The translations under genes were made by a program, and so were the position numbers. Below the pieces are notes generated by a model. The model did not search any database. It saw nothing but the letters and a program-made list of their open reading frames with translations, and was not told where the DNA came from. 64,000 nucleotides of DNA from an uncultured Acidobacteriota bacterium (GTDB lineage Bacteria; Acidobacteriota; Polarisedimenticolia; J045): NCBI GenBank assembly GCA_963702425.1, contig CAVPCQ010000032.1:32001-96000 (forward strand), read 5' to 3'. The first letter of the stretch is position 1; every line of letters starts with the position of its first letter. Of this stretch, positions 188 to 27,300 are shown piece after piece.

Positions 188-1102
188 ATGATCGAGCTGA
201 AGTCGGTTTCGAATCCCCAGCCGAAGGCCGCGCTCGAGGGCGCTTTCACCGAGGCGGTCCCGACTCGAGCGGTGACCGAAGGGCGGGCCGGCTCGGCCAG
301 TGCCGACACCTCGCGCTCCTTGAAGCACCTGGCCGCCAAGGGCCGCGGCGAGCCGCTGCGGAAGCGCTCCGCGCCGTCTGCTCTCGAGAGCATCATCGGC
401 CCGACGGACGACCGCGTCCGCATCCTCGACACCGATCTCACACCGTGGCGCATGGTCTGCGCGCTCCGAATGCGCGGTCCTTCGGGATCCGCGATCGGCA
501 CCGGGTGGTTCGTGGGACCGAAGACGCTGCTCACCGCGGGCCACTGCGTCTACTCCACGAGCTTCTTCGGCGGCTGGGCTTCGGAGATCGAGGTCAGCCC
601 GGGGCGCAACGGAAACGAGTTCCCGTTCAGGACGGTGAAGAGCCGCCGCTTCAGCTCGATCGATCGCTGGATCAACTCGGAGGACCCGGACTTCGACATG
701 GGGTGCATCCACCTGGACGAGCCGCTCGGCAGCGAGGTCGGCTGGTTCGCGGTGGGAGCGCTTCCCCCGGGTGACCTCGAGGGCTACCTGGTCAACGTGT
801 CGGGATACCCGGGAGACCGGGGAATGGGTACCGAGCAGTATCATCACAAGAACCGGGTGCTGCAGGTCACGGACCGGCGCCTCTTCTACGACGTCGACAC
901 GTTCGGCGGGCAGAGCGGGGCTCCCGTCTGGATCCACGAGACCGAGACCGCGCCACCGCTCGCGGTCGGCATTCACGCCTACGGCACCGGCGGCTCGCCC
1001 ACGGGGCTCGAAGCGAACTCGGCGCCGCGGATCATCCCGGAAGTGCTGGACCAGATCCGAGGCTGGGTGGAGGCAGACGGAGGGTGGCCCAAGAAGGCGT
1101 AG
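188..1102 (+). CDS. V8-like glutamyl endopeptidase (trypsin fold, S1B-like) with N-terminal pro-region
   Basis: GGAGG RBS; triad TAGHC / DFDMG / TFGGQSGAP; Thr190 and His213 (VGIH); predicted mature start SIIGPTDDR after SALE; no signal peptide. Confidence 0.9.
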   Translation: MIELKSVSNPQPKAALEGAFTEAVPTRAVTEGRAGSASADTSRSLKHLAAKGRGEPLRKRSAPSALESIIGPTDDRVRILDTDLTPWRMVCALRMRGPSGSAIGTGWFVGPKTLLTAGHCVYSTSFFGGWASEIEVSPGRNGNEFPFRTVKSRRFSSIDRWINSEDPDFDMGCIHLDEPLGSEVGWFAVGALPPGDLEGYLVNVSGYPGDRGMGTEQYHHKNRVLQVTDRRLFYDVDTFGGQSGAPVWIHETETAPPLAVGIHAYGTGGSPTGLEANSAPRIIPEVLDQIRGWVEADGGWPKKA

Positions 1103-1356
1103 CCCGGACCCGACATCGCATCGTCGTCCTCGACGAGGGCGGCCATCCCGTCGCCGACGCCGTGGTCGCCCTCGCCCGCAGCAGCGTGCCGTTCCCGGAG
1201 ATCGCGCTGCTGACGGACGACAAGGGCGCGGTCGAGTTGCAGCTTCCGCCCGGCGTCTTTGCCTTCCGGGCGCGCGGACCGGGGGACACTGCGGGTGACA
1301 CGGAGGTGACGAGTCCCGGTCCAACCGAAAGTGTCGTGCGCTTGAAGGCGCGCTGA
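1084..1356 (+). CDS. Small carboxypeptidase-regulatory-like (beta-sandwich) domain protein
   Basis: VLDEGGHPVADAVV...TDDKG..LQLPPG pattern; overlaps the upstream stop. Confidence 0.6.
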   Translation: MAQEGVARTRHRIVVLDEGGHPVADAVVALARSSVPFPEIALLTDDKGAVELQLPPGVFAFRARGPGDTAGDTEVTSPGPTESVVRLKAR

Positions 1357-1369
1357 AGGGAGGCTTCCC

Positions 1370-24984: not shown

Positions 24985-26211
24985 TCAGCGTCCCCCGCGC
25001 AGGTCGGCGATGCCGGTGCCGGCCTGGCAGCGTGCCAATGTCTGATCGAGGGCCGGGGTCGGGGTGCCGATGAGACGCTGGGCGACCACGGCGACGTCGA
25101 CACACTCGCGGAACATCTTCCGCTGCTCGAAGCCCCGGGCGACGGCGGTCAGGATCGCCCCGTGCATCTCCGGTGCCAGGCGCGCGACAGCCGGATCGTT
25201 CAGGGCAACGCCCGAGGTCGTCGAGGGGCGCGGCGGCTTGAAGAGCTGGAACGCGTCCCCGACGAACGCCCGCACGTCGTACGCCCCGCCGGCCGGCTCG
25301 ACGCTTCCCAGGAGGAACGCATCGGCGCCGAGCGCCCGGGCGTACCCCGCGGCGAACTCCACCGAGCGGGGTCGCGCCTCGTCGCACGCGACGAACCACG
25401 GCTGGAACTCGGGCGGGAGGTTCAGCGTCTGGAGGACGGTGCCCACGTCGTAGGTGAGCGCGTCCGCGATGCGCCCCGTGAGGTCGGCCTCGCCCCCCGA
25501 TCCCGAAAGCGGGGGACGGAAGTGGCCCACCACCACGCCTCGGGCGTTCTTGAGGACGCACGCTCCGAGCGCCTTCGGCAGGAGAGGAAGCGGGATCTCC
25601 TCCCCGCCCTCCGGCAGGGCCTGCGAGTGCTCGGTGTAGCCCTCGTGCTTCACCAGGACGGTCGCGGGCTCCCGGCAGGGCGCAAAGGCCAGGTCGAACC
25701 GTCCGGACGCGTCGCTCGCGCCGTTGGCGACCGAATTGGATCCGCAGCGAATGTCGATCGTCGCGCCGGCGATCGGCGCTTCCGTCGTGAGGTCGGTGAG
25801 CACGCCTCGCGCGTGCCGCGAGGCCGCGGGACCGGGTCCCCACAAGCGCCAGGCGGCGATCGCGCCGGCGACGGCCAGCAGCAGCGCGACCGCCACGGCC
25901 GCCCGGCGGGCGCCGCTCGAGCCTCTTCCAGGAAGCTTGATCGAGGACTCCGCGGGCCAGGATGCGGCGATCGCGCGGACCTCCTCGACATACGCCGGGC
26001 GCTCGCGCTCGAGGATCGGCCAGAGGCGATCGATCTGCCCACGGTCCTGGAGCAGCCCGATGAAAGCGTCGGCCTGCGCGAGCAGCGGCTCCTGCCAGGG
26101 GATCTCCGGCTTCAGTTCCTCGAAGTCGTCCGTGACGAGACGCTCGAGCGCGTCGCCTTCCTGGAATCGCTCGACGAGGAACTCGCGGAGCTTCCGGTGC
26201 GCTTCACCCAT
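24985..26211 (-). CDS. Single-pass membrane protein: cytoplasmic EAD-like helical domain, TM helix, carboxypeptidase-regulatory-like and extracytoplasmic domains
   Basis: LREFLVERF..LERLV..LIGLL-like helices ending ERP..VRAI; TM AAVAVALLLAVAGAIAAW; PIAGATI..SDASGRF..HEGY. Confidence 0.7.
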   Translation of the reverse strand: MGEAHRKLREFLVERFQEGDALERLVTDDFEELKPEIPWQEPLLAQADAFIGLLQDRGQIDRLWPILERERPAYVEEVRAIAASWPAESSIKLPGRGSSGARRAAVAVALLLAVAGAIAAWRLWGPGPAASRHARGVLTDLTTEAPIAGATIDIRCGSNSVANGASDASGRFDLAFAPCREPATVLVKHEGYTEHSQALPEGGEEIPLPLLPKALGACVLKNARGVVVGHFRPPLSGSGGEADLTGRIADALTYDVGTVLQTLNLPPEFQPWFVACDEARPRSVEFAAGYARALGADAFLLGSVEPAGGAYDVRAFVGDAFQLFKPPRPSTTSGVALNDPAVARLAPEMHGAILTAVARGFEQRKMFRECVDVAVVAQRLIGTPTPALDQTLARCQAGTGIADLRGGR

Positions 26212-26226
26212 GGCCGGCCCCCGGCC

Positions 26227-27300
26227 CTACGCCTGCAAGGCCGCCGCCACGAGCGGGCGAGCGGCGATCAGCGCGATGGGAATCCCCTCGTTGTAGGCCG
26301 GCTTCGGTTCCTTCGGGTCCCCCGAGTGATGGAGCGCGATCAGCCCGAAATCGCCGTCGAAGACCGGAGACCCCGAGGAGCCCGGCTCGGTCGGCACCGT
26401 GTAGCGCAGGCGCCTTCCGCCGCCCGTGACCTCGAGCGTTTCCTCCATCCCGAGGGCGAGCTTCATCGGGAGCGTCTTCGGGTGCTGCAGGATGGCGACG
26501 ACCCGCTTGGCCGGGTAGTCGACGGGCCCCGAGGGGACCGGCACCCATCCGCGCGCCTCCTCGGCACTCGAACCCTTGCCGACCGGCTCGGCCCCCACCG
26601 ACTCCGCGAGCCGCAGGAGCGCGTAGTCGAGCTCTCCTTCCGCCGGGTCGTGGGGCTTGGGATCGGCTACACCGTCGACGTCGCTCGGCGGGGCCGCGTC
26701 CACCTTCCATTCGGAGGCGAGCGTCACGACACGGCCCATCGAGATCACGCTGCCCGTCTCGGAGAGCTTGTGGTCGAAGCGGCACGACCAGCTCGACGCG
26801 AGCGACGAGCCACCGAGGAGGTCGTCCACCACGTGGTAGTTCGTGAGCACGAGATCCGCCCCGACGAGGAAGCCCGTCCCGCGGCCTTCGCCGTTGCGGT
26901 CGACCCGGCAGACGCGCCACTCGGCGCGCGTCAGCTCGGCGCGCCACTTCGCGACGTCGAGGAAGGTCGCGTTGCCGCTCACGACCTTCTCGAGCGTCGA
27001 CGTCTTGACCGCCGCGGCGGAGGAGAGTCCGACCAGGGCGGCGAAGTCCTGGAGGGCGGGGTTGCCGGAGTTCTGGTTGCGCCCCCCGCTCACGATCTCG
27101 GCGAGCCGCCCGTGCGCCTCGGCCCACGCGATGAGATCGAAGGCGTTCTGCTCGAGGCTTTCGCTCTGTGCCGTGATCGTGGCGAGGTTCTGGTCGAGCT
27201 GGTCGGAGACCATGCGCCGGAGCTCGCTCGCGCTCGGAAAAGCCGCGAGGAGCGCCTGGCGCAGGTCTTTCTTCTGCATTCCGTTGAGCGTCAGAGGCAT
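26227..27300 (-). CDS. Effector-associated domain EAD1 + trypsin-like serine protease
   Basis: LNGMQKKDLRQALLAAFPS..L..M...L..NL..I..LIAWAEAHG...NSGNPAL (EAD1); GTGFL, LTNYHV, LDYALL, TEPGSSGSP, IALHH. Confidence 0.9.
   Translation of the reverse strand: MPLTLNGMQKKDLRQALLAAFPSASELRRMVSDQLDQNLATITAQSESLEQNAFDLIAWAEAHGRLAEIVSGGRNQNSGNPALQDFAALVGLSSAAAVKTSTLEKVVSGNATFLDVAKWRAELTRAEWRVCRVDRNGEGRGTGFLVGADLVLTNYHVVDDLLGGSSLASSWSCRFDHKLSETGSVISMGRVVTLASEWKVDAAPPSDVDGVADPKPHDPAEGELDYALLRLAESVGAEPVGKGSSAEEARGWVPVPSGPVDYPAKRVVAILQHPKTLPMKLALGMEETLEVTGGGRRLRYTVPTEPGSSGSPVFDGDFGLIALHHSGDPKEPKPAYNEGIPIALIAARPLVAAALQA

Follow-up and report, generated by a model that had tools for sequence, protein, structure and literature searches.

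An immunity island of a soil bacterium suggests a counterpart of the caspase-to-gasdermin switch with Glu replacing Asp

Organization of the island

The window analysed here is a stretch of 64,000 nucleotides from an uncultured Acidobacteriota bacterium (assembly GCA_963702425.1, contig CAVPCQ010000032.1, positions 32,001 to 96,000 of the forward strand). It has a G+C content of about 70%, and its genes were called from third-position GC content and Pfam matches. An immunity island at nucleotides 188-27351 holds five intact trypsin-fold proteases (termed P1 to P5), an NLR-like NTPase, a metalloprotease, a lysozyme, a gasdermin, a patatin, TIR proteins and subtilases. An earlier note on this DNA had proposed that the five proteases form a Glu-specific cascade sharing one cleavage code with the death effectors. 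Our analysis suggests that this soil-bacterium island contains a counterpart of the caspase-to-gasdermin switch in which Glu replaces Asp. We consider it fairly probable that the proteases are intracellular relatives of V8-type glutamyl endopeptidases, which would be made inactive and be cut after Glu to unlock the effectors. The principal genes are as follows.

188..1102, plus strand: P1, a signal-less V8/BIGEP-like serine protease (Pfam Trypsin/Trypsin_2)
8305..9468, plus strand: P2, a homologue of the first protease in Lysobacter-type gasdermin operons (Pfam Trypsin_2; PADLOC PDLC03010, E 2.5e-40)
9472..11148, plus strand: P3, an N-terminal TPR-S sensor domain followed by a protease (Pfam TPR-S, Trypsin_2)
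11073..14176, plus strand: NLR-like STAND NTPase directly after P3, with DUF4062/TIR-like, NB-ARC and TPR_12 array regions (Pfam, frame plot and translations)
14215..15753, minus strand: snapalysin-like metalloprotease with the motif HExxHxxGxxD (weak Pfam M7 match only, E 0.008)
16536..17159, plus strand: GH108 and PG_binding_3 lysozyme without an export signal and with a conserved C-terminal tail (Pfam)
17824..18549 (or 18612), minus strand: P4, a minimal V8-like protease of 241 residues with a 24-residue pro-segment (Pfam)
18765..19541, plus strand: bacterial gasdermin (bGSDM) with an N-terminal Cys3 and an 18-residue tail after Glu239 (PADLOC bGSDM, E 3.2e-79)
19581..20780, minus strand: patatin-like phospholipase with a conserved C-terminal helix (Pfam Patatin)
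26227..27351, minus strand: P5, an N-terminal EAD1 adaptor followed by a protease (Pfam EAD1, E 7e-18; Trypsin_2)

The P4 and gasdermin genes are divergent and lie 215 bp apart. Related loci are denoted below by L numbers; the closest of them come from uncultured Acidobacteriota.

Fold and S1 pocket of the proteases

All five proteases lie where the earlier note had placed them and match Pfam Trypsin or Trypsin_2, and their His, Asp and Ser triad motifs align across the whole set. Each carries a Thr five residues before the catalytic Ser (position -5; TFGGQS, TLGGNS, TEPGSS, TDYGTS and TEPGSS in P1 to P5, respectively) and a His in a hydrophobic strand (VGIH, VGLH, VGLH, VALH and IALH). In P1 these residues are the Thr of DTFGGQSG (nt 896-919) and the His of VGIHAY (nt 965-982), both of which align with their counterparts in V8 and BIGEP.

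A search of P1 against the sequences of solved structures revealed a glutamyl endopeptidase of Bacillus intermedius (1p3c) as the best match, with an E-value of 1.2e-17, followed by V8. P4 matched SplB, V8 and exfoliative toxins in the PDB, P2 and P5 gave weak matches to glutamyl endopeptidases around the Thr...Ser...His region, and P3 gave no protease match among the solved structures. The AlphaFold2 model of P4 has a mean pLDDT of 87. Its nearest fold match by Foldseek is FAM111A, and Esp, V8, exfoliative toxins, BIGEP and SplB were also found, with E-values of 1e-11 to 1e-12 for Esp, V8 and the exfoliative toxins.

The earlier note took Thr190/His213 as the S1 signature of glutamyl endopeptidases, and this was correctly read: all glutamyl endopeptidases keep His213 together with Ser/Thr190 (PMC5508998; here and below, papers are cited from the parts of their text that were available). 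However, the same pair is also present in Gln-specific proteases, and His213 alone does not fix charge recognition (PMC5508998); SplB and the viral 3C enzymes are Gln-specific and share the Thr/His pair. The signature alone therefore indicates Glu or Gln before the cut, and the substrate side must decide between them.

The pocket is also linked to activation. The S1 pocket of V8, BIGEP and Esp becomes complete once the mature N-terminus contributes its alpha-amino group (PMC5508998), and therefore these enzymes stay inactive until the propeptide is removed. Glu-SGP processes itself at Glu(-1)-Val1, and autoactivation is described for variants that have Glu at this position (PMC5508998). Inspection by eye revealed no hydrophobic signal segment at any of the five N-termini, so that the island proteases are best called intracellular relatives rather than members of the secreted group.

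Conserved Glu at the pro/mature junctions

The Glu motifs that the earlier note had quoted for the five proteases, the gasdermin, the patatin, the lysozyme and the metalloprotease are all present at the positions it gave. Those of the proteases are listed here, with a slash marking the predicted cut.

nt 377-400: predicted pro/mature junction of P1, SALE/SIIG
nt 8599-8619: junction of P2, AALE/AIV (AALE/AIVEVDGSRP)
nt 10369-10392: candidate junction of P3, GKAE/ATFG
nt 18466-18489: junction of P4, GGLE/AVIG
nt 26980-27000: junction of P5, STLE/KVV

The earlier note proposed to check whether this Glu is kept among homologues, and it is kept in all or nearly all of those compared for P2, P4 and P5. 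In P1, Ser69, next after Glu68 of SALE, aligns with residue 1 of mature V8 and BIGEP. The only P1 relative found (L110) has Arg at -1 of the junction. In L110 (407-2454) a P4 relative directly precedes this Arg-junction protease.

The most extensive comparison was made for P4, using the best 120 of 183 relatives, of which 115 sequences could be anchored. The relatives have about 249 residues, with a conserved N-terminal segment of about 30 residues, the Glu, and then A-[VI]-[IL]-G-x-P-N-F. Glu occupies position -1 in 105 of the 115 and Ala position +1 in 99, and the residue preceding the Glu is V, L or F in 80/115. The ten sequences without Glu at -1 have K (two), R (two), or G, T, D, A, S and Q (one each).

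Similar conservation was found for the other families. All eight P2 relatives in other loci carry E/A[IV][IV]xxDG[ST]RP, including the first protease of Lysobacter enzymogenes (locus L049; phmmer E 1.4e-28 against P2); a ninth match to this pattern was an unrelated open reading frame (ORF) and was discarded. LE/[KR][TIV][IV] is present in 5/5 EAD1-protease relatives of P5 (L013, L019, L023, L030 and L061). The TPR-S relatives of P3 show GGLE/K, SGGE/V and VAE/V at a roughly similar distance from the protease domain, in a loose alignment. In gasdermin loci such as L045, L057 and L063 the protease's own junction mirrors the gasdermin site. Glu at position -1 would allow the island proteases to be activated by their own kind.

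The earlier note also supposed that the sites are exposed. In the structure models two sites fit this: residues 23-25 of P4 (Leu-Glu-Ala) have pLDDT values below 50, and the patatin site lies in a loop of its model.

The frequency of the motif was examined in a crude set of proteins predicted from the genome (3232 ORFs, 1,386,601 residues), which includes P1-P4; P5 was missed by the filter on third-position GC and was read directly. The LE dipeptide occurs 6.1 times per 1000 residues genome-wide and 7.4 times in the island, which is no enrichment. The caveat of the earlier note that LE is a common dipeptide was thus right, and the dipeptide was dropped as evidence. The longer motif [AG][AG]LEA[VI] occurs 12 times genome-wide, four of them within the 8146 residues of the island (P2, P4, gasdermin and patatin), where about 0.05 would be expected from the rest of the genome; as the motif was defined after seeing the data, this concentration is a pointer only. 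The island proteases are the sole His-bearing trypsin-like matches in the crude proteome, and three HtrA-like proteins elsewhere in the genome have Ile at -5 and no His.

The gasdermin linker tracks the neighbouring protease class

The gasdermin carries its Glu in the linker AALE/AVA (nt 19470-19490), before the 18-residue tail. PF26164 was found on the gasdermin homologues (464 homologues), and alignment of the best 120 of the 464 revealed two linker types at the same place before the C-terminal peptide, x-L-E-small and x-M-[KR]-small. Neighbours were then classified in 79 gasdermin loci, with three duplicates (L002, L003 and L022) excluded, by profiles built from the window proteases, from nine Pfam-confirmed caspase-like neighbours and from gasdermin-adjacent subtilases, and the linker was read behind a conserved anchor.

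His-bearing trypsin-like protease within 7 kb: linker with Glu only in 16/17 loci, counting the window; in the remaining locus the tail looks broken
Peptidase_C14 within 3 kb: linker with Lys/Arg and no Glu in 20/20 loci
Subtilase neighbour: linker with neither Glu nor Lys/Arg in 6/7 loci
No protease recognised by the profiles, 31 loci: Glu in 3, Lys/Arg in 14, both in 1, neither in 8 and no anchor in 5

The linker Glu of the gasdermin thus tracks the class of the neighbouring protease. Lysobacter-type operons fall into the Glu class, among them locus L049 of Lysobacter enzymogenes, which has been studied experimentally; in these operons the gasdermin linker reads x-A-E/A-[VI] and the first protease's own junction repeats the motif. 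A tree was made from the gasdermin cores, leaving out linker and tail. Rows coupled to trypsin-like proteases fall into three supported clades in it (8, 3 and 5 rows), and no fewer than three changes are needed, of which the well-supported branches force a single one; the association thus has two or three lineages behind it at most, and not sixteen. Cleavage after Glu by the island proteases is predicted from the conserved Glu sites together with this covariation.

The pairing of P4 with a gasdermin recurs in L084 and L085. An HtrA-type protease considered as gasdermin partner in L014 was rejected, having Ile at -5, no His and a distance of 5.8 kb. Searches of a genome set across the phylum found the gasdermin in 4/401 and the patatin in 2/401 genomes, too sparse to help. 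A complex prediction of P4 residues 25-241 with the gasdermin, run without controls, scored 0.00 and was given no weight either way.

Patatin and lysozyme sites

Two further effectors carry Glu sites close to their C-terminal ends.

nt 19656-19676: patatin linker GGLE/AVR, before the conserved C-terminal helix
nt 17055-17087: lysozyme linker GGPE/ATLE/VNF

Patatins of this family are conserved in their core and C-terminal helix, with a variable linker between the two. The LE is kept in all 17 closest homologues (at least 68% identity), and more distant ones have other linkers. In the model the site falls in the loop between helices 347-366 and 377-398, in a block with a lower pLDDT of 69. The patatin occurs together with P4 in L084 and L086. 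Glu-directed activation of the gasdermin and the patatin is, as a prediction from sequence, well supported.

A different linker was found in L012 (7968-16051, Thermodesulfovibrionales), which encodes a gasdermin, a C14-TIR protein, an nSTAND1-WD40 protein and a patatin; here the gasdermin and patatin linkers share a Lys-rich motif of the KGIK type. This single locus may follow the same pairing logic with another code. The one further patatin locus from the phylum-wide searches, L166, has an Arg-rich linker, and the three profiles found no protease within 14 kb of it.

For the lysozyme, the earlier note had put the site at LE/VN, which was not upheld: the conserved Glu is that of PE/AT, four residues upstream. 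The relatives with a tail carry xE/[AS] at this position, and one has a Lys/Arg-rich stretch instead. The lysozyme gene adjoins LE-type gasdermins in L005 and L006.

Proposed mechanism and alternatives

Based on the pocket, the junctions and the linkers, we propose the following scheme. What the data show are the fold family, the S1 residues, Glu sites that are conserved and covary, the gene neighbourhoods and two sites that are flexible in models, whereas we infer every cleavage event, the order and the trigger. The precursors would begin with a pro-segment or adaptor, which is TPR-S in P3, a peptide of 24 residues in P4 and EAD1 in P5; a linker ending in Glu and a mature start of the type x-[VI]-[IV] would follow. 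Upon an NLR-like or EAD-bridged assembly, a sensor-borne protease, for which P3 is the best candidate, would be switched on. It would then cut after Glu in itself and in P4, and the new N-terminus would complete the S1 pocket. The active enzyme would cut the gasdermin at the linker Glu, resulting in the loss of the 18-residue inhibitory tail and in pore formation. The patatin linker would likewise be cut, removing the C-terminal helix and activating the lipase. The lysozyme linker would probably be cut too, and the pores could then give this enzyme access to the wall.

A cascade with several tiers that links separate systems is plausible, though unproven, because TPR-S proteases recur beside P4 relatives, namely in L084, L098, L106-L109 and L117 (7/38 listed loci, many of them short contigs). 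Such neighbourhoods fit a two-tier arrangement. P4 itself has no sensor or adaptor domain, and a Glu junction on a Glu-type enzyme meets the requirement for self-propagation. That several sensors feed one cascade is conjecture, as the shared code could reflect common ancestry of separate systems. A bolder version, which we offer only tentatively, is a self-propagating 'glutamate caspase' network, in which V8-like zymogens activate each other by way of the Glu at their own pro/mature joint, and in which pore formation, lipid hydrolysis and wall lysis are unlocked together by a single code. In it the linker residue would be a swappable address of gasdermins and patatins, with Glu for V8-like proteases, Lys/Arg for caspase-like proteases and a Leu-Ser type for subtilases.

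Alternatively, the cutting rule is shared and there is no cascade. The island would then consist of independent modules (P2-P3-NLR; P4-gasdermin-patatin; EAD1-P5 with a partner; P1) that inherited their Glu preference from the same V8-like stock, each cutting its own partner, with cross-activation incidental. The pieces do separate in relatives: P3-like proteases, gasdermin and lysozyme occur without P4 in L005 and L006, patatin and P4 in L086, and EAD1-proteases with gasdermin in L013, L019, L030 and L061. In addition, an integrase fragment and frame-shifted genes indicate a patchwork island, and the catalytic site of the first Lysobacter protease, the homologue of P2, is dispensable for defence (PMC10312443), so that not every tier is needed. 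However, P4 lacks a sensor or adaptor and still has a Glu junction in nearly all of its relatives, which calls for a Glu-specific activity to act on it. TPR-S proteases are also found repeatedly as immediate neighbours of P4 relatives, and P4, gasdermin and patatin share one LE/AV site. We regard the version without a cascade as rather unlikely, while giving it serious weight.

The dispensable Lysobacter protease weighs against the Glu-directed switch itself as well, as do the Gln-specific enzymes with the same pocket, the Arg junction in L110, the few gasdermin lineages behind the linker association, and several further points. The essential second protease of Lysobacter has Ala, not Thr, at -5. 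For the patatin, genomic context beyond the close relatives comes from a single locus. Since the NLR gene and both S8 genes read in two frames, the island may be decayed in part. No cleavage has been observed for any island protein, and the Glu could be conserved for structure and not for cutting.

On this last account the Glu motifs would be structural, autoinhibitory or due to chance, and the cuts would fall at other bonds, such as one that follows a hydrophobic residue, which is the case in the protease-nuclease pairs of Avs and Hachiman. The residue before the Glu is mostly hydrophobic in the P4 relatives, LE is not enriched in the island, and the nearest fold match of P4 is FAM111A, which is not known to be Glu-specific. 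Moreover, the other defence trypsin-like proteases whose sites have been mapped cut after Ile (PMC12642450, PMC12799240). A purely structural role would not predict that the gasdermin linker switches between Glu, Lys/Arg and neither with the protease class, nor the same switch in the L012 patatin, and Thr/His are the S1 residues of Glu/Gln-specific enzymes (PMC5508998). We consider this account highly improbable and retain the Glu-directed cut as the preferred reading.

Other features of the island

The remaining genes, and the Glu motif of the metalloprotease, are as follows.

1370-3008, plus strand: subtilase (S8) gene that changes frame
3110-4685, minus strand: subtilase (S8) gene that changes frame
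5785-7194: amidohydrolase
7164-7724, minus strand: integrase core (rve) fragment between the amidohydrolase and P2
15256-15276: metalloprotease motif ALLE/GAP
17196-17765, minus strand: signal-peptide protein with a weak PGDYG match
20872-23583: three TIR genes in a row (pYEATS-TIR, TIR and CAP12/Pycsar-type TIR), between the patatin and the EAD1-protease module

The NLR gene occupies two frames joining near 13127/13130, inside an array of near-identical 42-residue TPR repeats, and the frame change reflects a true frameshift or else an assembly error from collapsed repeats. With this break, the frame changes in both S8 genes and the rve fragment, the island might be largely decayed and its network no longer working. 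The genes of the five proteases, the gasdermin, the patatin and the lysozyme, however, are all intact with high third-position GC, and the NLR break falls within near-identical repeats, where assembly errors are common. We consider general decay highly improbable.

The earlier note extended the cleavage code to the metalloprotease and the S8 proteases. These sites rest on the dipeptide alone, and the membership of both in the network is conjecture; the S8 motifs AALE/AA and VGLE/TR occur in frame +1 only (nt 1424 and 1694), and the gene that holds them passes into another frame further downstream. In the note's 'EAD receptor', the neighbouring protein of 408 residues, Pfam detected no EAD and gave CarboxypepD_reg matches only.

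In the metagenome loci L087-L099, P4 relatives (about 64% identity) directly follow a secreted or lipoprotein-type Peptidase_M10/astacin-like metalloprotease, which has a conserved xE/LIV[HN]xVGG just before its catalytic domain, and a papain-like Peptidase_C1 gene lies near. This trio of protease classes is reminiscent of the staphylococcal aureolysin-V8-staphopain cascade. The island metalloprotease has only the zinc motif in common with these M10 proteins.

Upstream of the window (contig 26043-30118) the island goes on with a TIR protein of 619 residues and a protein of 730 residues without Pfam matches, and an alpha-amylase gene (contig 23089-25005) is the likely island edge. The rve fragment hints at assembly of the island by insertion. 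The subtilase part at 3110-3769 matches, with E-values of 1e-92 to 1e-83, subtilases that directly follow gasdermins in loci of Larkinella and Pedobacter, and it looks like a remnant of a second, subtilase-type gasdermin module. The protein at 17196-17765 recurs in L005 (1044-1829), L006 (1037-1705) and L086 (3762-4340), with E-values of 1e-65 to 1e-98, where its relatives accompany P4/patatin or gasdermin/TPR-S protease, and the amidohydrolase also recurs in L005 and L006.

Comparison with known systems

Protease-released bacterial gasdermins are established, with a mapped site in Runella (Leu247/Gly) that is cut by a CHAT protease (10.1101/2021.06.07.447441). Gasdermin systems of the CARD-NLR type that use trypsin-like proteases are established as well, and the available text names no cut site for them (PMC10312443, PMC13236601). 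The same is true of nucleases and further effectors that are gated by proteases, where the cuts follow Ile or Arg (PMC12642450, PMC12799240). For the trypsin-like bGSDM branch, including the studied Lysobacter system, the available literature yielded no statement of Glu specificity or of another specificity, the one mapped cut found being that of CHAT after Leu, and a mapped Lysobacter site may stand in the final journal versions or supplements. The conserved Glu together with a Glu/Gln-type S1 pocket gives a precise prediction of the cleavage site of this branch that point mutants could test, and it also covers how the proteases stay inactive and why patatin and lysozyme travel along. Should the linker residue serve as a modular address matched to the class of protease, this would account for the transfer of death effectors from one immune system to another, for which a change of one linker could suffice, and the partners of orphan effectors could be predicted from sequence alone.

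The Lysobacter enzymogenes operon (gasdermin, two trypsin-like proteases and an NLR-like ATPase) is similar to the island in the short inhibitory C-terminal peptide of its gasdermin, in the neighbouring protease and in the conserved Glu-Ala of the gasdermin linker; P2 is homologous to its first protease, and an NLR-like NTPase follows. In contrast, the island gasdermin lies 9 kb from the P2-P3-NLR operon, beside P4 and the patatin, and the sensor-side protease P3 has TPR-S by Pfam, apparently in place of CARD.

V8/SspA of S. aureus, Esp of S. epidermidis and BIGEP share with the island proteases the chymotrypsin fold and the pair Thr/Ser190 and His213, as well as a mature N-terminus of the type x-[VI]-[IL], the freeing of which turns the enzyme on (PMC5508998). 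They differ in being secreted pre-pro-proteins that are mostly activated by other proteases, whereas the island enzymes have no signal peptide visible by eye, are joined to immune adaptor or sensor domains or to a short pro-peptide, and have Glu at -1.

The effectors of Avs and Hachiman (MBL nuclease, Pepco, alpha/beta-hydrolase and EACC1) are likewise latent death effectors cleaved by a linked trypsin-like or caspase-like protease (PMC12642450, PMC12799240). The trypsin-like enzymes there cut after Ile, whereas Glu is predicted here, gating gasdermin, patatin and possibly the GH108 lysozyme. The EAD/Death-like-domain conflict systems predicted by Kaur, Burroughs, Iyer and Aravind combine an EAD1-trypsin-like peptidase (as in P5), TPR-S, pYEATS-TIR and STAND NTPases, and their EAD-linked peptidases are predicted to act by proteolytic activation (PMC8195603); in the available text, unlike here, no residue before the cut and no site shared by protease and effector is assigned.

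Similar to the pathway from the caspase-1 inflammasome to gasdermin D, the island would combine an NLR-type sensor, an adaptor-borne zymogen and one acidic residue before the cut in both zymogen and gasdermin. The folds are unrelated, a serine chymotrypsin-like protease against a cysteine caspase, and Glu takes the place of Asp, so that the resemblance is a functional likeness and not family membership.

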